Source: a phage. From it: 64,000 nt of DNA. This document shows positions 13,037-40,359 of this stretch, one piece after another. The position numbers and the translations under genes were made by a program. The stretch lies in sequence record PZ053912.1. One strand, 5' to 3'. The notes beneath the pieces are model-generated. The model ran no database searches. It worked only from the letters and a program-made list of their open reading frames with translations, and was not told where the DNA came from. The stretch's first letter is position 1, and each line of letters starts with the position of its first letter.

Positions 13037-13833
13037 TAGGACATCCAACACATTTTATAACCTTTGCAGGTTCTGTTAGGATTATTTAATGCTTTCAATA
13101 TATTAGAAGACCCTATATCTAAATACTCCCTTAATTCATAAAGATAGTTAAAATCAATAGTTTCACCTGTTTTTACACTTGTGATTCTTATAGGCCTTCT
13201 TTCATATTTAGATTTATACAACTCTCTAGTCTTAGCTTTAGTTTCTTCTGACCTAGGAGTGTATGGTTTAAATCCTTTTGTTTTAAATGTTTCCATTCTT
13301 GATTTAGTTATTTTATCCTGGTGTTCTTTTGTTTTTACAGGTGCTTTTCGCCCATTCTCCCAAGATAACTTGTTGGCCTGTATTATTTTATCTATTGCTT
13401 CTTGCGTATGAGTTTTACCATAAAATGGATTTAATTCGCCTATACGTTGTGAAGCAATATGTGACATTAATTCTCTTGTTGCTTTAGTATGTTTTTTACC
13501 TTTAAATGGGTTGCCATTTTTAGCAATCCATTCTTTCATAAATCTAGAGTGCTCTTTAGAGAATTCTTGTTTAAGCCAATCATAATCTCTAGAATTTCTA
13601 GCTCCCATGTAAAAAGCTCTAATAGCCATAAGCATAGAACGGTTCTTATGAATTTTATAAAGCAATAAATGGGCGATAAAATGCTCTCTAGGGGTCATTT
13701 TAACTAGATTTGATTTATCATTACTCCCACCCATAGATTTAGGCAAAATATGGTGAGTTTCAGTATAATTAGGAATAGTGCTGCGGTTTTTAGCCGCAGC
13801 GATAAGTTTATCATAAATTTTACGGTAATTCAT
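13036..13833 (-). CDS. free-standing HNH homing endonuclease with NUMOD3-like repeats (Mob-type)
   Basis: HHILPKSMGGSNDKSNLVKMTPREHFIAH HNH motif; repeated NPFKGKKHT / NPFYGKTHT motifs; ATG at 13833 overlapping gp39 stop (TAATG); track start 13848 is TTG. Confidence 0.8.
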   Translation of the reverse strand: MNYRKIYDKLIAAAKNRSTIPNYTETHHILPKSMGGSNDKSNLVKMTPREHFIAHLLLYKIHKNRSMLMAIRAFYMGARNSRDYDWLKQEFSKEHSRFMKEWIAKNGNPFKGKKHTKATRELMSHIASQRIGELNPFYGKTHTQEAIDKIIQANKLSWENGRKAPVKTKEHQDKITKSRMETFKTKGFKPYTPRSEETKAKTRELYKSKYERRPIRITSVKTGETIDFNYLYELREYLDIGSSNILKALNNPNRTCKGYKMCWMS

Positions 13834-15653
13834 TATCCTAGCATCCAATCTTTACGGAGTTCAGGGTCGTTACCCATGAGCATTTCAAATAGTTCTTTCC
13901 AATTTTCAGGAAGTTTAACTACGTCGTACACAGGGTTTTGAATCATTTCTTTATATTCATCCCGCTGAAGTGAGCCCAATCCCTTGATGTATCGAATACT
14001 ATGCTTAGGCAGTGTATCTTTAGCTTCTTCATACTCAGCTACAGTATAAAACCATTTTTGAGTTTTGCCAATTTGTGCAATAATTACAGGCGTTTTAACA
14101 AAGCGAATACGTCCTTGTTCAAACAATTCAGGCCAATTACTAAAGAAAGCAAGCAAAGCCGGATAGATACTTCCAAGACCGTCATGATCGGCATCGGTCA
14201 TAATTGCAATATTACGATAGTTCGTATTCTCTGCCTTTTCACCAAGAATAAGACCTGTGATAGCACAGATATCGAAGAGCTCTTTGTTCTTCATCATATC
14301 GGCATATGACATACCCCAGCTATTCATCACCTTACCACGTAATGGGAATCCGCCGTGTAGTTCACGGTCACGAACATCAATGAGATAACCAATTGCCGAA
14401 TCACCTTCTGTTAAAAACAATGTCGTATCTGCATCTTTACCACATTGGTTAGCTTTAATATGCTTATGAACCTTAGCTTTAGTTGCCTTTTTAGCTGCTT
14501 TAGTTTCTGCAGCCTTTTCTGCTGCCAATTTACGAGCTAATGCTGCTTCAACAATAGGCATAATCAAGGCTTCGTTTTTAAGAAGTGCCTGAGCAATTTT
14601 CTTAGCATCTAATTGGATATGATTACGAATATCACCATACGTTGACGTTAAACGTTCTTTAGTCTGAGAATCAAAACGCATGTTGCTCATGTCTCTAATA
14701 AACATCAACATTGTGAGACATTCTTTAACACGAGCTTTAGTGACTTCAATACCCTTATATTTCTTTTTAATACCGGGCAAAAGATGTTCGCAGATATCAT
14801 CCATTACACATTCAACATGATGACCACCATTTTTAGTATGGATGTTATTCACATAAGTTAAATGACGGAAGCCGTCTGGTGATGTTGTGAATGCTATAGA
14901 GACTTTATCATTTTCTTGAATGATGTTATCTTCGCCAAATTGTTTAGCAAATCGTTTAAAATTACCATCAACTTTTTTACCATTAAATGTGAACTTGATA
15001 TCAGGATAAACGACTGCCAATGTTTGAAGTCGGTCTAAAGTAATATCTAAATAAATTTGAGATAAATTATGCTCTTCAAATGAAGAGAAATCAGGAGTGA
15101 AGATTACTTTGGTGCCTTTACCTTTAGATTTCTTAGAAGACCATGATTTGTTTTCCATTCCGTTTGAACAGTTAACAGTGATTTCATTTTCGCCATCTGA
15201 CGTGATGCCTGTAAACAACGTAGAGAAGATATTAGTTAAACTACTCCCGACGCCGTTCATACCACCAGTCTTGCGTTCAGAGTCATCACCAAAATTACCA
15301 CCAGCCTTTGGAATAGTCCAGGCTGCTACAGGCCCAGGAATTTGTTCACCTGTTTGGTCGGTGACCATTGCTTGAGGAATACCACGTCCGTTATCTTCCA
15401 CCGAAACTTGATTATTTTTAATTTGCACATCAATTTTATTTGCAAACTTAAATGATGTACGAATAGCTTCATCAACCGAGTTGTCAATAATCTCATCGAT
15501 TAATTTAATCAGACCAGGAACATATTCAACTTGTTGATATTTACCAAACAAAAAACGCTCGTGGGCTTCTTTGGCCGAAGAACCAATATACATGCCACTG
15601 CGTTTCTTAATATGTTCTACATCTGACAATACCTTAATTTCATTTTTAATCAT
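13833..15653 (-). CDS. 39: DNA topoisomerase II large (ATPase, GyrB-like) subunit gp39, uninterrupted 606 aa form
   Basis: MIKNEIKVLSDVEHIKKRSGMYIGS..LIDEIIDNSVDEAIR GHKL ATPase; 606 aa equals T4 gp39+gp60 fused, so no separate gene 60. Confidence 0.9.
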   Translation of the reverse strand: MIKNEIKVLSDVEHIKKRSGMYIGSSAKEAHERFLFGKYQQVEYVPGLIKLIDEIIDNSVDEAIRTSFKFANKIDVQIKNNQVSVEDNGRGIPQAMVTDQTGEQIPGPVAAWTIPKAGGNFGDDSERKTGGMNGVGSSLTNIFSTLFTGITSDGENEITVNCSNGMENKSWSSKKSKGKGTKVIFTPDFSSFEEHNLSQIYLDITLDRLQTLAVVYPDIKFTFNGKKVDGNFKRFAKQFGEDNIIQENDKVSIAFTTSPDGFRHLTYVNNIHTKNGGHHVECVMDDICEHLLPGIKKKYKGIEVTKARVKECLTMLMFIRDMSNMRFDSQTKERLTSTYGDIRNHIQLDAKKIAQALLKNEALIMPIVEAALARKLAAEKAAETKAAKKATKAKVHKHIKANQCGKDADTTLFLTEGDSAIGYLIDVRDRELHGGFPLRGKVMNSWGMSYADMMKNKELFDICAITGLILGEKAENTNYRNIAIMTDADHDGLGSIYPALLAFFSNWPELFEQGRIRFVKTPVIIAQIGKTQKWFYTVAEYEEAKDTLPKHSIRYIKGLGSLQRDEYKEMIQNPVYDVVKLPENWKELFEMLMGNDPELRKDWMLG

Positions 15654-25200: not shown

Positions 25201-25721
25201 TAATAACCTCGGTCTTGGCGAGCAAAGTTCTCGGCATTTTTCAGGTAATACAGTTTAAAGATTTCTTCTGCTGTCAGACCAAGACCATGGAACATATTCA
25301 GAACAAAGTGCAGAATATCAATCATTTCGAATTTAATTTCGAGCTGGTCTTCAGGAGACAAATCGTTAATCAGGGTTTCACGACGTTCAGCATGTTGAGC
25401 TTTCCAAGGCTTCCATACAGCGCTCGCATCTTTTTCGCCATTGCTCATGCCACCAAGAGAAGTCAGAAGTTCGCGGAATTCATCATCAATATAATCTTTC
25501 TGATTACGCAGCCAATCAACAACATCGCCAGCAGTGGCTAATTCATCAGGATGTTTGTTATGTTCAGGCTTGTCATTTGCCAGACGAACCTGTAAAGATT
25601 TCTGCATATCAAGCATTACCTGCAGAGGGTCTTTATCTTCATGAATCAGAGCATTAAAATAAGCTTCTTCTGCTTTATCAACACCAGAAATAAGTTGTGA
25701 ACATTCGTTAAAGTGTGCCAT
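25200..25721 (-). CDS. 56: dCTPase/dUTPase gp56 (MazG-like)
   Basis: Start trimmed to ATG 25721 (MAHFNEC..) with AAGGA SD; size and sequence resemble T4 gp56. Confidence 0.8.
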   Translation of the reverse strand: MAHFNECSQLISGVDKAEEAYFNALIHEDKDPLQVMLDMQKSLQVRLANDKPEHNKHPDELATAGDVVDWLRNQKDYIDDEFRELLTSLGGMSNGEKDASAVWKPWKAQHAERRETLINDLSPEDQLEIKFEMIDILHFVLNMFHGLGLTAEEIFKLYYLKNAENFARQDRGY

Positions 25722-32198: not shown

Positions 32199-32561
32199 TT
32201 AAAAGAATTTAAATTTTTTCTTGGTCCGTTCATTAAAAGCTTGTTGTACTTGCATTGTAACACATTTTTCAACATGTGGTGCAAGTTCTGCTTTTCTATC
32301 CTGGTCAAGAACTGCAAAGTCCATTACGATTTTACCATCAACCCAGTCTAGTTTTGTAATATAGACTATATGATGAGAACCGTCTTCAAGTGTAATCAGA
32401 ATCTCTTGAATGACATTTTCCATTGCTGAACGGATAATTTTAAGAGATTCATTAAACACTCGTTCTTTGCGAATGTCTTCCCCTTCCGAAGAAGGGGATT
32501 CATCAACGATTTCTAGATTTAAATCATCGAGATTATTCATCGAAATCTTCCATTTCGTCAA
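32199..32561 (-). CDS. 40: hypothetical protein at gene 40 position
   Basis: 120 aa; synteny between 41 and uvsX. Confidence 0.45.
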   Translation of the reverse strand: MTKWKISMNNLDDLNLEIVDESPSSEGEDIRKERVFNESLKIIRSAMENVIQEILITLEDGSHHIVYITKLDWVDGKIVMDFAVLDQDRKAELAPHVEKCVTMQVQQAFNERTKKKFKFF

Positions 32562-33705
32562 GGTCGTTTTCTATATCTGCTGCAGACGGAGCATCAGAAG
32601 TTTTAACCGGAACTTTAGTTGTTGCTTTGCAATTAATAAGGTCATTAACAGCGTCATCAACTTCTTTAATAGAAGAGATAGCACCTAGTTTATATTTAGT
32701 TTCAATTGCATCTCGGAAAGGTTTGTGTTTAAACAACGGTCCCCAGAATTCTACACAATCAGTAGCTTTAGCACGCCATGATTTCTCTTCACGAATCATT
32801 TCGCCTGTTTCTTCGTCAAGGAATTCTCGAGCATACCAACCAGCTTTAGGCTTAACCACAAAACCGATTTCAGTTGCCATTTCTAACAAGCCACTGAATG
32901 GGTCGATACCACCATCGAAATTAACCGTGATTGGGAAAGTAGATTTCTCTTTAACTGTACGAGATTTTTCTGCTTTCAACGTGAAGTCATAACCGGTCAA
33001 TTCTGTACCTTCTTTAACCTGACGTTTAGAGATAAAGAATACGGTGTTAGCAGAGTAAAGAATACCTGTGCCACCGCCCATAATCTCTTTAGGATACAAT
33101 CCGCCAATTTCCATTGCTGTATGGTTGATTGCAACACATGGAATATCTTTAATAGTCAGATAAGGAGTCACAATGCGGAACAGAGATTTAAGTGCCTTAG
33201 CACGAGACATATCACCTACGACTTTCTCGTTCAATGCATCTTCGGTTTCTTTCTTAGATGCAGTATTACCGATTGAATCGATAAAGATAATAACTTTATC
33301 ACCGCGTTCAATCGCGTCAAGCTGATTAGTCATATCAACTTTAAGTTGTTCGACAGATTGAATCGGAGTATGAACTACACGGTCTAAATCAACACCCATT
33401 GAACGAAAATAAGATTCTGAAGCACCAAATTCTGAATCATAGAACAAACAAATTGCATCTTTATATTTCTTCATATATGCTGCAACCATGGTCAGTCCAA
33501 ACAACGTTTTAAAGTGTTTAGAAGGAGCAGCAAAAATAGTTAAGCCTGATTGCAACCCGGCATTCAGTGCACCACCTAATGCAATATTCAACATCGGAAT
33601 ACGAGTAGGGACTTCATCGCGATTATTAAACAGCTTAGACTTAGTCAAGTCTGCAGTCATTTTAGAAGTAGAAGCTTTAATCAGACGAGATTTTAAATCA
33701 GACAT
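32533..33705 (-). CDS. uvsX: UvsX recombinase (RecA/Rad51 family)
   Basis: 390 aa; MSDLKSRLIKASTSK.., acidic C-terminus, matches T4 UvsX. Confidence 0.9.
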   Translation of the reverse strand: MSDLKSRLIKASTSKMTADLTKSKLFNNRDEVPTRIPMLNIALGGALNAGLQSGLTIFAAPSKHFKTLFGLTMVAAYMKKYKDAICLFYDSEFGASESYFRSMGVDLDRVVHTPIQSVEQLKVDMTNQLDAIERGDKVIIFIDSIGNTASKKETEDALNEKVVGDMSRAKALKSLFRIVTPYLTIKDIPCVAINHTAMEIGGLYPKEIMGGGTGILYSANTVFFISKRQVKEGTELTGYDFTLKAEKSRTVKEKSTFPITVNFDGGIDPFSGLLEMATEIGFVVKPKAGWYAREFLDEETGEMIREEKSWRAKATDCVEFWGPLFKHKPFRDAIETKYKLGAISSIKEVDDAVNDLINCKATTKVPVKTSDAPSAADIENDLDEMEDFDE

Positions 33706-33759
33706 TGTATTTTTCCATAGGCATCATTATATTTTACTCATGTTTAAAAGATAAGATGA

Positions 33760-33786
33760 TTATATACTAAGGGTTATACAGCATTT
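33760..33786 (-). promoter_or_regulatory. candidate MotA-dependent middle promoter upstream of uvsX (AAATGCTGTA box plus TATATAAT)
   Basis: MotA-box-like sequence 10-12 nt upstream of a -10 element; T4 uvsX has a known middle promoter. Confidence 0.35.
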
Positions 33787-33804
33787 AAAACTTTAAACAG
33801 GCTC

Positions 33805-34353
33805 TTAACGAGCCCATTTGATAATTTCTGTAATCAAATAATTACGTTCGCTTGCATTAAATCCTATAACTTTGTTAGCACCGTCATGATTAAGTAATTG
33901 ATACGTTTGGATTTTGTTATGAATTGCAAACTCTTCAAAATATGAAATGACTGTATTAAAACCGAATGAAGACAAAGTAATAAGATCGTCTTCAAAACTT
34001 TCAGTCATTTCGTTACGTGTTAAAATAATTGTGAACACATCATGGTTTTGGCAAAGACGAACATAATCCTGTTCATAAACGTCAAGAACCGAGTCCGCAT
34101 CTTGTCGAATACGTCCATAAACCCAGTTACTAATATATCCACGGTCTAACAGATAAATCTTAGTAGGGTCTAAATAATTCAACATCGTTTCGAAACAGCC
34201 AACTTCATTTCGAGACTTAACATCGAAACGTCCATCAACTGTTCGTTTAGGGAAATCAATCTTTACATATCTTTCACTAATTTCCATTATGTCATTAATG
34301 AAAGTTGTTTTACCAGCATTATCCGGGCCATCTACTAAAATAATTTTAGCCAT
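33805..34353 (-). CDS. P-loop nucleotide kinase, thymidylate-kinase-like
   Basis: 182 aa; Walker A GPDNAGKTT and LLDRGYISNWVYG (DRY-type NMP-binding motif); sits where T4 has b-gt. Confidence 0.5.
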   Translation of the reverse strand: MAKIILVDGPDNAGKTTFINDIMEISERYVKIDFPKRTVDGRFDVKSRNEVGCFETMLNYLDPTKIYLLDRGYISNWVYGRIRQDADSVLDVYEQDYVRLCQNHDVFTIILTRNEMTESFEDDLITLSSFGFNTVISYFEEFAIHNKIQTYQLLNHDGANKVIGFNASERNYLITEIIKWAR

Positions 34354-34354
34354 T

Positions 34355-35254
34355 TTATTCCTCGATTACGACATCTTCATATTTAGGTATATTATACGGC
34401 GAAGAAATTAAAGCGTTAAAGTAGATGAACTCGCCAAGACCTGGATGGAATACTTCTTCAGGATTTTCGAAATATTGAATCTTCGGCCGTCCTTTAAGAA
34501 TTTGATAGTACTCAGTTTTAGTTGGTTTAAAAATTCGAATCAGCGCTTCTTCAGGATACTTATTTCTGTCGAAGCTATTATTTGGATCGGTTATATAAAG
34601 CGGTTGGCCTAATTGAATTGCACATTCAACCACTTGTTCAAAACGATAGCACGGGTCACTAATTCGAAATGGATGAAAAATACCATCTAGATGAATAGGA
34701 GCCAAATCACCTACAAGACGCTGCATGATGGAAGGACGTATAACTTTCTGGGTTACGATAATCTTATTACCATCTGCACCTGCGTTAACCAGCACTTCTT
34801 TTTGACGTTCATTCAACACAGTAGTTTGAAGTGAACGATTAACCGACAACATATCAGTTTTTAAGAATTCGTCAATATAAAAACGTGGTTTATTAGGGTC
34901 TGCAGTGATATTGAAATTGAATTCCACATCAAAAGCGCCGTCATATCCGGTGATATCTGTGATTAGAAAATCACAATCATAATAAGCAATTAATGAATCA
35001 ACCACAAATTCATTTTCAGACCAGAAATATTTACGAGTGTTATACGCGTTATCTTTATACCATAATGGAACAAACTTAAATTCTGGAAAAAGACGTTCGC
35101 ATTCTTTAATATCAGATGCATTACGTGGATATGTAATCACATCACCCGGATTAGCACGGTGCAAATGAAGTTGGAAGTTGCCATCCTTAAGGATAGCATA
35201 CTGTCCAGTTTCATAAGACCGCATACTCAAGATAGGTACGCGGAAATTAGCCAT
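34355..35254 (-). CDS. hypothetical protein (299 aa) at T4 b-gt locus
   Basis: ORF track; no recognisable motif by eye. Confidence 0.5.
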   Translation of the reverse strand: MANFRVPILSMRSYETGQYAILKDGNFQLHLHRANPGDVITYPRNASDIKECERLFPEFKFVPLWYKDNAYNTRKYFWSENEFVVDSLIAYYDCDFLITDITGYDGAFDVEFNFNITADPNKPRFYIDEFLKTDMLSVNRSLQTTVLNERQKEVLVNAGADGNKIIVTQKVIRPSIMQRLVGDLAPIHLDGIFHPFRISDPCYRFEQVVECAIQLGQPLYITDPNNSFDRNKYPEEALIRIFKPTKTEYYQILKGRPKIQYFENPEEVFHPGLGEFIYFNALISSPYNIPKYEDVVIEE

Positions 35255-35970
35255 TAGTCAAGGAATCCTTTAACATAATCAAAATCACGTTCAAACACAT
35301 GGGCACTTACCATGGTATGAGTATAATCACCAACTTCTACACCACATTCGTTAGCGATATAATGAAGTAATTTTCCTTGGAGATAAAAATCCAACTGCAT
35401 AACAACAGCACAGTTCTGAGAACGCATATGACAGTGGGTATAAAGCTTACCATCACGAATATAATAAGTCACTGAGTCAGTACATGGATATTCAAGTGTT
35501 TCGTCCGAATCAAGCAAAGCCTGATCTGAACTTTCAAGAATTTGAAACACAACTCTTCGAGAGTTAGGTTTCTCTTTAAGTTCTTTGAGAAGAGCTGGTA
35601 ATTGGGCCGCAATGCGAGGACCATAGAAAGTGTTGAAGTTCGCCGGCAAAACATCTGATTTTGGTTTAGAAATAAATTTAGCGACATTAGGATATGCCTT
35701 AAACGCTTCTTCTGCGTTGGTACCACCAGAAATCATAAACTTCCAGAAGTCTTCGGCATATTCATAAGAGATGCGGTTAATACGTGGGTCGGTCATTTTG
35801 AATGATGATGGAGTGTCAACAACTACTGTCATAGACCCAATTTCATTACAACGTCCAATACGAGAATCAGTTACGAATTCCGGGTTTTCTAAAATTTCAC
35901 GATTGACTGCTTTAAATGCGGTTTGAAAATCTGCGGCTTTGATATATTTCATTGTGTTATGTTTTCCCAT
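35254..35970 (-). CDS. 42: dCMP hydroxymethylase gp42 (thymidylate synthase fold)
   Basis: 238 aa; GAGGT SD; CTDSVTYYIRDGKLYTHCHMRSQNCAVV resembles T4 gp42 catalytic region. Confidence 0.75.
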   Translation of the reverse strand: MGKHNTMKYIKAADFQTAFKAVNREILENPEFVTDSRIGRCNEIGSMTVVVDTPSSFKMTDPRINRISYEYAEDFWKFMISGGTNAEEAFKAYPNVAKFISKPKSDVLPANFNTFYGPRIAAQLPALLKELKEKPNSRRVVFQILESSDQALLDSDETLEYPCTDSVTYYIRDGKLYTHCHMRSQNCAVVMQLDFYLQGKLLHYIANECGVEVGDYTHTMVSAHVFERDFDYVKGFLD

Positions 35971-36153
35971 GTTTACCTCAATACAATTTATTATATACTC
36001 AATTCGTAAAGCTTATTTGAATTTCTTGACAATGTTGATATAACGTAAAGCTTCAGCATCGATACTTCCAAGAACACTATGAAGAAATGCATCAGCGTAG
36101 TATTCCAATTGAACAGGTTTCTTTAATCACTTTAGCCGCTTTAGTTTCAAACA

Positions 36154-36249: not shown

Positions 36250-37410
36250 TCATTCCGGGTACCTCAAAGCGTCATCAGAGTTAGTTATATCAATAATAGA
36301 TATAGAGTTTTCTGCTAACCCATTTTTAGATAACTGACGTTTATAATATCTTTCACAATATGTACACGTCGTCCCGCAGATTTCATTAGCACAATCGAAA
36401 TCTGGATGTCTGAACCACCTTTTTTCTAAAAAGCCGTCTAACAAAGAGGTTTCAATATTTACTGTATGTGAAAACTCAATTTCGTTTTCAAGAGTGAAAA
36501 TAGTCTCTAAAGGCTTCCACAGTTCTAACAAATTACCTTCAAACTTTTCAGAAGCGTATGCTTCAAGAACTTTCAAAATGTAGTCTGTGCTACCTGTACG
36601 TCCTGAAACTTTGAATTGAGTGATACCAATATCATTATAAAGTTTCAAATCTTGAGGACGAACAAAACGAGTTCTCAACCAGTTAAATGGGTCTGTATCA
36701 CGAGCTTTAATACAGTGCTGCATAGGATATCCGTTTAAGGATTTAGCATCATCAGCTGTAACATCAGTACTATGGAAAATATAGCAAGAGTCACGATAGC
36801 TACAATGTGTTGTATACCCTTTACCAGCATTAGAACAGAACTCATTTACAAGAACTTCAAATATTATATTGTTCTTATTGCAAAACTCTGCTGCACGCTT
36901 CAGGAAAGAAACTGAACGGTTCTTATGAATTCCACAGCAGACCTTTTTGATATTATATTGGTCATGCAAATATTTGATTTGAGTTACAGCATCGACATGT
37001 AGAATTGTTGAAACTTCAATCTCAATGTCTTTATTGACTTCACGAACAATTTCCATAACAACAGGGTTAGCGATAGTAATACGCCATACGCCTATTGACC
37101 AAAGATACTGAACATAATCCTGAATAGCTTTCTTCTTCCACTCAACTAGTTCTCTTTTTGAACCAGGATTTATCGTGTTGAGTGTATAGTTAAAGCAAAT
37201 ACCTAATTCGTTACAACGTTTAACGTAATCTTCTAACATCTTTTTGTCAACGTCAGGAAGCCTAAAATCAGGTCTGGCTGCTACAAAAGCCATTTCTCTT
37301 GTAGAGCCGTATACTTCATTTATCAAGCTATTAGGATAAGTTTTATTGAGCTCTACGATTTTATCAAGAAGAGCTAAATCAAAATTCGTTCCGATTTTAA
37401 AAGTATTCAT
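36250..37410 (-). CDS. Cys-rich putative metalloenzyme, possibly peptidase-U32-family-like (Fe-S?)
   Basis: 386 aa; IFEVLVNEFCSNAGKGYTTHCSYRDSC and C-terminal CANEICGTTCTYC (Cx4Cx3Cx2C) cluster; co-operonic with the sugar genes. Confidence 0.4.
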   Translation of the reverse strand: MNTFKIGTNFDLALLDKIVELNKTYPNSLINEVYGSTREMAFVAARPDFRLPDVDKKMLEDYVKRCNELGICFNYTLNTINPGSKRELVEWKKKAIQDYVQYLWSIGVWRITIANPVVMEIVREVNKDIEIEVSTILHVDAVTQIKYLHDQYNIKKVCCGIHKNRSVSFLKRAAEFCNKNNIIFEVLVNEFCSNAGKGYTTHCSYRDSCYIFHSTDVTADDAKSLNGYPMQHCIKARDTDPFNWLRTRFVRPQDLKLYNDIGITQFKVSGRTGSTDYILKVLEAYASEKFEGNLLELWKPLETIFTLENEIEFSHTVNIETSLLDGFLEKRWFRHPDFDCANEICGTTCTYCERYYKRQLSKNGLAENSISIIDITNSDDALRYPE

Positions 37411-37467: not shown

Positions 37468-37869
37468 TTATAGATTCGGTTTATATGATTTAAATGTTTC
37501 GAATTCGCCTTTATTCATAAGAGCTTTGAATTCGTCAGGACGCATAGCTTTGTCGTCGATAATCCAATCATATACTGGTTTATGTGTTAGCAAATTATGG
37601 TACTTCAAGCCAATGTTTGCCAAGTTCTGAATCAGACTTGGGAGAATGTCAATTGCTATACGACCAGGACCTACTGACTTCATACCACGAGCAGTGTAAA
37701 GCGTTATGGTATGCCCTGCATCATACAGGGCATTAATGGCAGACACCATTTCGACGTCTGGTTTGAAGTTCACGTAATCACGATTGTTATTCCACTCTGT
37801 TATACAATCATCGACATCAAAACAAAGATTAAGCATGTTTTCTACACGGTGCATTAGATTCGTTCCCAT
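37468..37869 (-). CDS. putative HAD-like phosphatase
   Basis: 133 aa; N-terminal FDVDDCIT resembles HAD motif I (DxDx[TV]); short for the family. Confidence 0.4.
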   Translation of the reverse strand: MGTNLMHRVENMLNLCFDVDDCITEWNNNRDYVNFKPDVEMVSAINALYDAGHTITLYTARGMKSVGPGRIAIDILPSLIQNLANIGLKYHNLLTHKPVYDWIIDDKAMRPDEFKALMNKGEFETFKSYKPNL

Positions 37870-39542
37870 TGATGAGTGATATCGCCACCGATTGGACGAT
37901 AGGAAACACCAGTTTCTTTATCAGTTAGTACCCATTTACCAGGATTTTTTGTAATCAGAGTAGCCGTTACAGGTTCTGCTACGTCATAACTAATAGAGCC
38001 GTCTTGAAGTACACGGCCCATGTTACGTAATTGCTTAGTCAGAAGTTCCATACCTTTATAATATGCGGCTACCGCTTTAAGTGGATTATTCTTGAAATAA
38101 CCACCTAATGCAATCCAGATAATTGCCACTGCCAAATGATGATACTCGTTAAACGAACTCATCTTTCCATATTTGTAAACTAATGGATTGATGTTAATAG
38201 TCACATTACAAGTTGTTTCATCAATAGTAAACTGTCCCCAGGTCGGATTAGCATTGAATTCATCATAACCTGAAACAGCATAAAGCACTTTAGCTTCATC
38301 GTACAATTTTGGCCCGTAAATCTTGGTTTCGCCAAAATATCCACGAGGGTCGATAAACTTGACTTCACCATTATCAGTAATCATAGTATTACTGAAGTTC
38401 GGGTCACCATGAATAACAGAGTACTGTCCCTGAGAACGGTTATGATAACGAATAAGGTGTTCTAAAGCTTGTTTCAACATTGGCTTCAGACGTCCAATCT
38501 TAGTGTAGTTCACATGTGTGATTTTACCGAATGAATCAATCAATGGTTGAATACTTTCACAACGATCAATAACTTTCGTATAGAACTCTTTAGTGAAATC
38601 ACGGCGAACAGTTTCAGGACTTACAAAATAAGTGTCTGTGCTGAATTTCAGTGCATCTAAAATTGCATCAACAATTTGTGGACGAGCAAGACTCGATTTG
38701 GATTTAATATATTCAAATGCCGGCTTACCTTTAATGCGTTCCATAATAAAGTGGCCGCCAGGATGATAACTTACAATCCGTGGAACTGAATCTGATTTAA
38801 CTTTCTTATACCAATTGACTTCATCTTTTTGAAGTGCAACGCCCTGTTCTGTTAAAGCAATCTTTGTTACCGTTTCTTCGCCAATTTCAACTGCATTAAA
38901 ACTACGATTAAGTTCACGAACTTCATGAGCTTTTTCAAGTTTAGGCATATCACCAAGGTCGATGATATTCATAAGCTCTGATTTATTGAATGCGCTGCCG
39001 TAAAGGAATTCTACGAAATCACGTCCTTTGCAGTATTCATGAATTTCCTCATCAGTAGAACCCATATAGAATTCCCAGTCTTTGAACTGATAAATTCCTA
39101 CAACATTACCACCTGTTGAACCTACATTAGTGATATTTTCACCGTCGAAATTATATCGACATTCGTCACCCTTAACATAGATTGCGTTAACATTCCAAGA
39201 CCACGAACCAAAATCAGGAATAATATCACACCAGTTAACAATTACATTATGGCCGTCTAAATCTTTGTGCAATTTAGCAAGAGCATAAGCAGAACCATAC
39301 GCTTCATCAACTGTACGAATAGTCACATTGAACCCTTCTTGCTCACAATAAGCTCGAACAGTTTCAGCAAATTTTGAATGAACTACTACAATAATTTCAT
39401 CTGCGCCAAGGTCAGAATAAATTGTATACAAATTGCTCAGAATAGTGTCTTGTTTATAGTTAACAAGCACCTTAGGAATATGATGCGTTATTGGATACAA
39501 ACGAGTTGCCAGTCCAGCACCAAGAATAACAGCTTTTTTCAT
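37854..39542 (-). CDS. bifunctional sugar-1-phosphate nucleotidyltransferase / sugar kinase
   Basis: 562 aa; N-terminal ILGAGLATRLYPIT (G-x-G-T-R-L NTP-transferase motif); C-terminal HGDPNFSN...FIDPRGYFG (APH/choline-kinase-like catalytic loop and DFG-like). Confidence 0.7.
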   Translation of the reverse strand: MKKAVILGAGLATRLYPITHHIPKVLVNYKQDTILSNLYTIYSDLGADEIIVVVHSKFAETVRAYCEQEGFNVTIRTVDEAYGSAYALAKLHKDLDGHNVIVNWCDIIPDFGSWSWNVNAIYVKGDECRYNFDGENITNVGSTGGNVVGIYQFKDWEFYMGSTDEEIHEYCKGRDFVEFLYGSAFNKSELMNIIDLGDMPKLEKAHEVRELNRSFNAVEIGEETVTKIALTEQGVALQKDEVNWYKKVKSDSVPRIVSYHPGGHFIMERIKGKPAFEYIKSKSSLARPQIVDAILDALKFSTDTYFVSPETVRRDFTKEFYTKVIDRCESIQPLIDSFGKITHVNYTKIGRLKPMLKQALEHLIRYHNRSQGQYSVIHGDPNFSNTMITDNGEVKFIDPRGYFGETKIYGPKLYDEAKVLYAVSGYDEFNANPTWGQFTIDETTCNVTININPLVYKYGKMSSFNEYHHLAVAIIWIALGGYFKNNPLKAVAAYYKGMELLTKQLRNMGRVLQDGSISYDVAEPVTATLITKNPGKWVLTDKETGVSYRPIGGDITHQWERI

Positions 39543-39583: not shown

Positions 39584-39727
39584 CTAGTTAAAGCATTCAT
39601 ACTTTGCTTGTAGTCCAATCATAATCCATCCAATTACAAGTGTTGGAATCATTACTGGAGCCGTTAAGCTCCAGTAGATAGTCATGACAAGCATCAATAG
39701 TAAAAGTCCTATTGTTATTGCTTTCAT
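39584..39727 (-). CDS. small hydrophobic membrane protein (47 aa)
   Basis: Manual translation MKAITIGLLLLMLVMTIYWSLTAPVMIPTLVIGWIMIGLQAKYECFN; ATGA overlap with SIS gene stop. Confidence 0.35.
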   Translation of the reverse strand: MKAITIGLLLLMLVMTIYWSLTAPVMIPTLVIGWIMIGLQAKYECFN

Positions 39728-40359
39728 TGTTCGCCTCGTAACATGGCACCTAGTGCACCGCCAGGGTGGAACTTAAGGAAGTCATTAGAGGTAAATCCAC
39801 GCTCAGACGAAAGGTTGATAGCAAACGTATCGATAAGCGCTAACAACAATGTAGTGGACATGGTCGGAGCCAGAGAATTCTCATCAACCTCTACTGCGAT
39901 GCCTGTACAGAAAGAGTAATCAAAAAGGGCTTCATTTTCTTGTGGAATGTCCGGGTTACAATGCAACAGAATCTGTTTGACGTTCGGACGAATCATTTTA
40001 AGATGCTTAGCCACGCCTATCATTTCTTCAGTTTTACCAGAACGACTAATATGAATCAACACATCATTAGGCGCAATGAATCCTGCATCACCGTGAGAAT
40101 AATGCCCAGTGTTCAAGTACATACTCGGGATACCGAGTGAAGCAAATGTCTCAGAAGCTTTAGTTGCAATATTAGCATTCTTACCAACACCTGTAATAAT
40201 TACTCGGCTTTCATAATTACTAAGTCCTGGGCGTCGAAGAGTTTCTAGAATAGCATTATAACGAGCAGGGTTTTGACTAATTACTTTGGCCATAGCGGCC
40301 AAAGAAGAAGCTTGTTTTATGATTGCGTCAATAGCGATAGTAATAGGAGTAGTTTTCAT
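39724..40359 (-). CDS. SIS-domain phosphosugar isomerase, KdsD/GutQ-like (putative arabinose-5-phosphate isomerase)
   Basis: 211 aa; VIITGVGKNANIA, HGDAG, SRSGKTEE, APTMSTT, FHPGGALG align with KdsD/GutQ SIS motifs; lacks CBS domains. Confidence 0.75.
   Translation of the reverse strand: MKTTPITIAIDAIIKQASSLAAMAKVISQNPARYNAILETLRRPGLSNYESRVIITGVGKNANIATKASETFASLGIPSMYLNTGHYSHGDAGFIAPNDVLIHISRSGKTEEMIGVAKHLKMIRPNVKQILLHCNPDIPQENEALFDYSFCTGIAVEVDENSLAPTMSTTLLLALIDTFAINLSSERGFTSNDFLKFHPGGALGAMLRGEQ

Follow-up and report, generated by a model that had tools for sequence, protein, structure and literature searches.

A thymidylate kinase-fold protein and a predicted minimal GT-B glycosyltransferase at the b-gt position of a Mosigvirus genome, assigned to the arabinosyl-5-hydroxycytosine pathway

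Two genes of the arabinosylation cluster occupy the b-gt position

In the 64,000-nucleotide stretch of phage DNA PZ053912.1 (the window), which comes from a Mosigvirus, two adjacent minus-strand open reading frames (ORFs) lie where phage T4 encodes its beta-glucosyltransferase (b-gt), and our analysis indicates that both almost certainly belong to the pathway that hypermodifies phage DNA with arabinosyl-5-hydroxycytosine. Judging from its predicted structure, the larger one, of 299 amino acids (aa), is a divergent minimal glycosyltransferase of the GT-B fold, most likely the enzyme that adds the first, base-proximal sugar, and the smaller one, of 182 aa, is a kinase of the thymidylate kinase (TMPK) fold which most plausibly acts on a modified nucleotide. 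These genes and their predicted roles have already been published, the cluster in PMC6024577 and the phage RB69 proteins gp45 and gp46:47 in PMC13326640, and the locus is in this sense a rediscovery of a published gene cluster. What is new here is that the transferase and the kinase share a phyletic profile and remain adjacent even in distant relatives, and that a second transferase is found in fewer records.

The ORF listing of the window exactly reproduced the coordinates of the two frames given in the original prediction, which was made from the sequence alone. The pair does occupy the b-gt position: it is flanked downstream by uvsX (32533-33705) and upstream by a 238-aa gene of the ThyA family (35254-35970), and the T4 gene order at the matching site is uvsX-segA-b-gt-42-imm-43. 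The unit consists of the following features:

33805-34353, minus strand: TMPK-fold nucleotide kinase, 182 aa, the equivalent of RB69 gp45; carries GPDNAGKTT and LLDRGYISNWVYG
34355-35254, minus strand: predicted minimal GT-B (GT4-like) glycosyltransferase, 299 aa, the equivalent of RB69 gp46:47, published as predicted arabinosyltransferase 1; no recognisable motif
35254-35970, minus strand: ThyA-family 5-hydroxy-dCMP synthase, 238 aa; matches PDB 9iqc/9ir2/9iqu (E = 8e-161)
35990-36014, minus strand: putative T4-type middle promoter of the hydroxylase-transferase-kinase unit; MotA-box-like aaGCTTTA, 11-nucleotide (nt) spacer, TATAAT

The stop codon of the ThyA-family gene overlaps the start codon of the 299-aa ORF (TAATG), and the kinase ATG lies 1 nt past the 299-aa stop codon, its GAGG Shine-Dalgarno sequence lying within the transferase gene. 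Hydroxylase, transferase and kinase are thus a translationally coupled unit of three genes, of which the two ORFs are the last two. The promoter was assigned by reading the sequence against what we take to be the T4 middle promoter consensus, and it suggests that the three genes may form a single middle-mode transcription unit; a generic scan for sigma-70 promoters and terminators gave no enrichment in the region. A second MotA-box-like element (aaTGCTGTA, 12 nt, TATAAT) was noticed at 33760-33800 (minus strand), between the kinase stop codon and uvsX. Because this element precedes uvsX, the latter is probably transcribed from a middle promoter of its own, and the modification unit probably ends with the kinase. 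Both ORFs are real genes, since they have many homologs with many invariant residues and occur in hundreds of phage records.

Positions 33700-35300 are 99.2% identical in DNA sequence to Escherichia phage HY126 and 98.6% to RB69, and this 1.6-kb stretch has 153 near-full-length matches among Mosigvirus genomes. The neighbourhood is collinear with RB69 gp33-gp56 and the cluster genes pair one for one with RB69 gp45-gp55 (the 'Afh' genes of HY126), so that the 182-aa and 299-aa ORFs are the orthologs of RB69 gp45 and gp46:47, and of gp78/gp79 of phage DLP3, with the same gene order, folds and neighbours. Homologs of the kinase and of the transferase have the accessions XAN60473 and XAN60474. Nothing substantive differs between the RB69 cluster and the window, which keeps the 299-aa ORF intact; in the RB69 record this gene is split into ORF046c and ORF047c by a single extra T relative to the window and HY126 in our alignment, a split ascribed to a sequencing error in PMC13326640. 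Table 1 of that paper lists gp46:47 as 'arabinosyltransferase 1' and gp45 as 'nucleotide kinase', both from structure models. Arabinosyl-5-hydroxy-dC has been shown in virion DNA of RB69, NP, HY126 and Bas46/47 (PMC13326640, PMC13390438).

The original prediction took the ThyA-family neighbour for gene 42 and framed the modification as glycosylated 5-hydroxymethylcytosine (hmC), and both readings have to be given up. The 238-aa protein is only 25% identical to T4 gp42 and near-identical to the HY126 protein of PDB 9iqc/9ir2/9iqu, and it carries an asparagine where gp42 has its active-site aspartate (RSQN versus RSND). This change, corresponding to D169N of E. coli ThyA, is the signature of 5-hydroxy-dCMP (5hodCMP) synthases, and RB69 gp48 and relatives bearing it have been shown to be flavin- and O2-dependent 5hodCMP synthases (PMC13326640). 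Since the neighbour is a 5hodCMP synthase and not a dCMP hydroxymethylase, the modified base should be arabinosyl-5-hydroxycytosine rather than a glycosyl-hmC. According to Lee et al. 2026 (PMC13326640), the sugar is an arabinofuranose (Araf) ether-linked to the C5 oxygen of 5-hydroxy-dC, present in RB69 DNA as beta-D-Araf-(1-3)-alpha-D-Araf. An earlier paper (PMC6024577) had reported 'arabinosyl-hmC', an assignment described as erroneous in PMC13390438.

In distant relatives of the locus, a Flavodoxin_2 gene of the NAD(P)H-dependent FMN reductase type lies directly upstream of or near the ThyA-like hydroxylase gene (L005/L006, 6539-7054 and 1815-2330; L004, 1-523). Such a position fits a gene dedicated to providing the flavin-dependent 5hodCMP synthase with reduced flavin. 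There is no Flavodoxin_2 gene in the cluster of the window.

The 299-aa protein is predicted to be a divergent minimal GT-B glycosyltransferase

As the original prediction had remarked, the 299-aa protein lacks obvious motifs. It matched no Pfam or NCBIfam family at E <= 0.1, including Glycos_transf_1 and Glyco_trans_4, and no PDB sequence was found by phmmer or by a 50-sequence profile; its only PHROG match was PHROG 3891, of unknown function. Structure prediction, proposed in the original prediction as a check, was the only approach that gave relatives. The AlphaFold2 model (predicted local distance difference test, 95; predicted template modelling score, 0.89) shows two Rossmann-like domains separated by a cleft, the architecture of GT-B enzymes. 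In fold comparisons it scored 17.7 with sucrose-phosphate synthase (6kih, 270 residues aligned), 16.8 with BshA, 16.0 with PimA, 14.6 with the HY126 glycosyltransferase 9iqz and 13.2 with T4 alpha-glucosyltransferase (a-gt). From 138 homologs gathered, 50 were aligned. In the C-terminal half, where a GT-B enzyme is expected to bind the NDP (by Arg/Lys at the diphosphate and an acidic residue at the ribose), R197, K246 and H270-P271-G272 were invariant in this alignment.

The GT4-type retaining GT-B enzymes (6kih, BshA 6n1x, PimA 2gej and T4 a-gt 1y6f) are just 7-12% identical to the 299-aa protein, which differs from them in being among the shortest GT-B proteins and in its predicted acceptor, a modified pyrimidine. 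T4 b-gt, of family GT63, has the same genomic position between uvsX and a ThyA-family gene, shares the common GT-B superfold and likewise attaches its sugar to a C5-linked hydroxyl on a modified cytosine, but the 299-aa protein showed no sequence or close structural similarity to it, and its family profile revealed no relation to T4 b-gt or to the second transferase of the pathway. The isoelectric point was tried as a clue to whether DNA or a nucleotide is the acceptor (5.1 for the transferase, 9.05 for b-gt) and rejected as non-discriminating, since T4 a-gt has a value of 6.1.

A homolog of the 299-aa protein, Thanatos TH1_063, has been assigned a different activity: UDP-xylose was detected by liquid chromatography-tandem mass spectrometry after incubation with UTP and xylose-1-phosphate (PMC12838424). 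By this token the 299-aa protein might be a UDP-pentose pyrophosphorylase that activates the sugar, a reading to which we give very little credence. The predicted fold is GT-B and not that of a nucleotidyltransferase, a bifunctional kinase/pyrophosphorylase is already part of the pathway (demonstrated for HY126 AfhE, as stated in PMC13326640), and some relatives have no sugar-activation genes nearby. Moreover, Thanatos-like lineages would be left with no other transferase for the first sugar (PMC13326640).

Transferase and kinase form the invariant core of the modification locus

Phyletic counts were obtained by tblastn against 50,697 phage records. The 299-aa transferase was found in 349 records (Escherichia 177, Acinetobacter 57, Klebsiella 26, Shigella 15, and others) and the 182-aa kinase in 344 (Escherichia 177, Acinetobacter 57, Klebsiella 25, Shigella 15, and others), the transferase of the RB69 ORF003c type being confined to 212 records of Escherichia, Shigella and Acinetobacter phages. 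The 299-aa gene therefore occurs in about 137 more records than the ORF003c type, including whole genera without the latter, and it is the only type of transferase in Thanatos, whose DNA is mono-arabinosylated (PMC13326640).

A scan of IMG/VR yielded 58 loci; together with two further loci, the 60 transferase genes formed 44 clusters at 90% identity. Of the 43 testable dereplicated loci, 36 have the ThyA homolog directly upstream of the transferase; the kinase is directly downstream of the transferase in 26 of 42 and elsewhere in the cluster in 6 more. Distant relatives, among them a 355-kb jumbo-phage contig and other metagenomic contigs, showed the same order of ThyA homolog, transferase and a 185/186-aa protein, the last of which matched the kinase profile (E about 3e-27). 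For the ten most divergent clusters, in which the kinase profile had failed at E 1e-3, a relaxed search found a TMPK-like ORF touching or near the transferase in 8, so that about 34 of 42 loci have a TMPK-like ORF next to the transferase, eight of these including weak profile matches. The ORFs of the divergent clusters have the P-loop EGxDRxGK[TD][ST] and matched Pfam Thymidylate_kin just below its threshold (E 1.5e-5 to 5e-4). Stop/start coupling is also present at distant transferase-kinase loci.

In view of the near-equal record counts, the same host genera and the adjacency, transferase and kinase can be regarded as the invariant core of the locus and as tied to the modified base, and the second transferase is an add-on in groups known for di- or tri-arabinose. 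We conclude that the first sugar is most likely added by the 299-aa enzyme, because its gene adjoins that of the hydroxylase and is found in 349 records, including lineages without the ORF003c type.

The original prediction had instead seen in it a second, divergent transferase that puts a further sugar on already glycosylated hmC. The part of this proposal concerning a divergent glycosyltransferase tied to DNA modification is borne out by the fold, and RB69-type DNA does carry a disaccharide (PMC13326640). The further sugar, however, is highly improbable: the expected base is 5-hydroxycytosine (5hoC) and not hmC, the distribution is wider than that of the ORF003c homolog and takes in mono-arabinosylated Thanatos, and the gene is joined to the hydroxylase gene in most of the testable loci.

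Some variants of the locus deserve mention. Only L055 and L056, among the divergent clusters, had no TMPK-like ORF in the relaxed search. In L055 (5218-6198) the transferase is followed by a UDP-galactopyranose-mutase-like gene in place of the kinase, which suggests a galactofuranose-first variant like RL38J1, for which galactose-first chemistry has been described (PMC13326640). No kinase-transferase fusion protein was found; one long ORF, in L056 (5422-7083), instead joins KdsC/HAD-phosphatase-like and transferase domains in one uninterrupted 554-aa frame, a possible fusion. In L057 and L060-L064 the Walker A motif of the TMPK-like partner ends in GKD[TS] rather than GK[ST]T; an aspartate right behind the P-loop lysine is unusual and, as far as the motif goes, raises the question of whether these partners are catalytically active.

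The 182-aa protein is a TMPK-fold kinase

Database annotations name the 182-aa protein thymidylate kinase, in line with its match to PHROG 761 ('thymidylate kinase', E = 6e-45), and the structures closest to it in fold are those of genuine TMPKs (vaccinia 2v54, T. thermophilus 5x7j and S. tokodaii 2plr). It nevertheless stays under all curated TMPK thresholds, with 15.6 bits against NCBIfam TIGR00041 (cut-off 83.25) and no match to Pfam PF02223 at E <= 0.1; distant members of the family reach 20-25 bits with Pfam Thymidylate_kin, just under the required 27. Alignment of the family, for which 27 homologs were gathered, showed that G9, D11, N12, G14, K15, T16, F34-P35-K36 and D70-R71 are invariant, D11 in 24 sequences. 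The protein thus has a Walker A P-loop with an acidic residue at its third position (G9-P-D11-N-A-G14-K15-T16; GxDNxGKT), in which an asparagine replaces the P-loop arginine of type I TMPKs. The thymidylate-kinase-type DRY motif of the original prediction is present in part: aspartate and arginine are invariant, but the motif is not a strict DRY, as a glycine follows and the aromatic residue, a tyrosine, is shifted by one position (D70-R71-G-Y). When the family profile was compared with E. coli Tmk only the P-loop aligned, and the base-pocket residues could therefore not be mapped.

A P-loop aspartate, FP(K/E)R and DR motifs are features of deoxynucleoside monophosphate (dNMP) kinases of the TMPK type. 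On the strength of these motifs the substrate should be a dNMP and not a sugar. The original prediction had allowed for a modified nucleotide or a sugar, with pentoses among the candidates, and the nucleotide is the half of it that survives: sugar phosphorylation in the pathway falls to the C-terminal domain of a 562-aa protein (see below), and the 182-aa kinase, with its dNMP-kinase P-loop, accompanies hydroxylase and transferase even where no arabinose genes are near, as in L005 and L034-L047, in which the trio is present and no arabinose gene lies within 6 kb. The kinase is for this reason tied to the base rather than to the sugar. As it co-occurs with the 5hoC transferase, its substrate is probably a 5-substituted dCMP and not dTMP. 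The known enzyme of comparable function is the dNMP kinase gp1 of T4, which passes modified dCMP (hm-dCMP in T4, 5hodCMP in the case of RB69 gp159) towards the triphosphate.

The annotations and the fold matches would also suit an ordinary dTMP kinase paralog, which would let the phage make dTDP from dTMP independently of the host and would take no specific part in DNA modification; the 299-aa protein would remain the transferase. We hold this to be improbable. The distribution of the kinase tracks that of the transferase (344 versus 349 of the 50,697 records, in the same genera) and not T4-like phages generally; the gene is absent from the T4 locus and is translationally coupled to the transferase; gp1 already covers dTMP in T4-like phages; and the scores are far under the TMPK thresholds.

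A favoured chain of reactions and the possibility of pre-replicative arabinosylation

The explanation that we favour for the whole chain of hydroxylase, kinase, first transferase and second transferase, with a confidence only a little better than even, is as follows. The gp56 homolog would convert dCTP to dCMP, which the ThyA homolog turns into 5hodCMP, a step shown in the literature. The 182-aa TMPK-fold enzyme would be a dedicated dNMP kinase for 5hodCMP, working in parallel with the gp1 homolog, and the modified triphosphate would then be made and incorporated into DNA at replication. The 299-aa GT-B enzyme would add the first alpha-Araf from UDP-Araf to the cytosine 5-hydroxyl, by default on DNA after replication, a role suggested by its fold, synteny and phyletic pattern, and the ORF003c homolog would add the second arabinose. 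The two genes of this chain that lie outside the unit are:

25203-25721, minus strand: gp56-type dCTPase, supplying dCMP and depleting dCTP; tblastn with RB69 gp56, 94.8% over 173 aa
11896-12996, minus strand: second glycosyltransferase, 367 aa, RB69 ORF003c/gp3 homolog, extension arabinosyltransferase; 98.6% to RB69 ORF003c, and matching PDB 9iqz/9ir0 'phage HY126 glycosyltransferase' (E = 1.5e-252)

Several points weigh against this chain. No activity of either protein has been reported in the accessible literature, and to the sub-threshold TIGR00041 score and missing PF02223 match of the kinase must be added the formation of UDP-xylose by TH1_063. On 5hoC DNA, gp79 of DLP3, a homolog of the 299-aa protein, showed no activity with UDP-Araf or UDP-arabinopyranose (UDP-Arap), data not shown (PMC13326640). 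Furthermore, RB69 gp159, a dNMP kinase of the gp1 type, converts 5hodCMP to 5hodCDP in vitro, and the hydroxylase expressed alone puts 5hoC into E. coli DNA (PMC13326640), so that a dedicated 5hodCMP kinase looks redundant.

Some of these points would be accommodated if arabinosylation took place before replication. The 299-aa enzyme would then arabinosylate 5hodCMP itself, the 182-aa kinase would be specific for arabinosyl-5-hydroxy-dCMP, too bulky for gp1-type and host kinases to handle, and the glycosylated dNTP would be polymerised, only later arabinoses being added on DNA. The gene order hydroxylase, transferase, kinase would mirror the order of reactions, the coupling of stop and start codons in the window and at distant loci would fit, and so would the retention of the kinase although gp159 phosphorylates 5hodCMP. 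The DLP3 homolog failed on 5hoC DNA and the later transferases are active on DNA (PMC13326640), and the closest structural neighbours of the 299-aa model (sucrose-phosphate synthase, BshA, PimA, trehalose-6-P synthases) for the most part act on small acceptors, many of them phosphorylated. The pairing of transferase and kinase, the most invariant feature of the family, is predicted by pre-replicative arabinosylation but is not proof of it.

We nonetheless consider this order of events unlikely. All characterised phage DNA glycosylation is post-replicative, and adjacency to the hydroxylase is not diagnostic because T4 b-gt adjoins gene 42 and yet acts on DNA. In addition, 5hodC nucleotides enter DNA readily in vivo (PMC13326640), the negative result with DLP3 is unpublished and could be explained by an inactive preparation or a missing partner, and net charge does not discriminate, the isoelectric point being 5.1 for the transferase but 6.1 for T4 a-gt. 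According to the authors of PMC13326640, arabinosylation of the mononucleotide cannot be told apart from post-replicative arabinosylation by their experiments. Arabinosylation on DNA after replication, with the kinase feeding 5hodCMP towards the triphosphate, is thus the order that we retain.

Other genes of the pathway and of the window

The genes for UDP-arabinose supply (arabinose-5-phosphate isomerase, bifunctional kinase/pyrophosphorylase and HAD phosphatase) were found in the same cluster, upstream of the hydroxylase gene, together with a U32-family gene:

36250-37410, minus strand: U32-family protein, 386 aa, the equivalent of RB69 gp50, a cluster member; Pfam PF01136, E = 7e-11
37468-37869, minus strand: HAD-type sugar-phosphate phosphatase, the equivalent of RB69 gp51/HY126 AfhF (role according to PMC13326640); PHROG 1238; TIGR01689 capsule-biosynthesis phosphatase, E = 4e-13
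37854-39542, minus strand: bifunctional arabinose-phosphate kinase/UDP-arabinose pyrophosphorylase, 562 aa, the equivalent of RB69 gp52:53/HY126 AfhE (role according to PMC13326640 and PMC6024577); NTP_transferase and APH-like domains
39724-40359, minus strand: arabinose-5-phosphate isomerase, the equivalent of RB69 gp55; KpsF/GutQ, E = 2e-32; KdsD, E = 7e-31

The U32-family protein, whose RB69 counterpart gp50 is labelled 'sugar or heterocycle reductase' in PMC13326640, had a weak NCBIfam match to UbiU, and its phage family has ten invariant cysteines, including C340-x4-C-x3-C-x2-C352. U32 proteins are O2-independent, prephenate-dependent Fe-S hydroxylases, among them TrhP/UbiU and RlhA, which makes 5-hydroxycytidine in 23S rRNA (PMC10990095, PMC5727448). 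Loci L053, L054, L057 and L059 have the genes in the order kinase, transferase, U32 and lack a ThyA homolog within 6 kb. The U32 protein may provide an anaerobic route to 5hoC as a complement to the O2-dependent ThyA-like synthase; a BLASTP comparison of its sequence with E. coli RlhA gave no significant match.

Between the second transferase and gene 39, about 800 bp without RB69 counterpart (approximately 13050-13840, minus strand) contain an ORF of roughly 264 aa, in which an HNH motif (HHILPKSMGGSNDKSNL...) occurs together with repeats of an NPFxGKxHT module. From these motifs it looks like a homing endonuclease insertion.

Significance

Arabinosyl-5-hydroxycytosine shields Mosigvirus and related phages that are candidates for therapy from restriction enzymes, DNA glycosylases and some CRISPR systems, and it hampers the sequencing and engineering of these phages. 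In the accessible literature, the 182-aa and 299-aa genes are the least characterised steps of the pathway. Their near-universal pairing makes the question of whether the acceptor is a mononucleotide or DNA sharply testable. Were arabinosylation to precede replication, it would be the first nucleotide-level DNA glycosylation in a virus, and it would explain why a kinase lies beside the first transferase in every 5-hydroxycytosine system.

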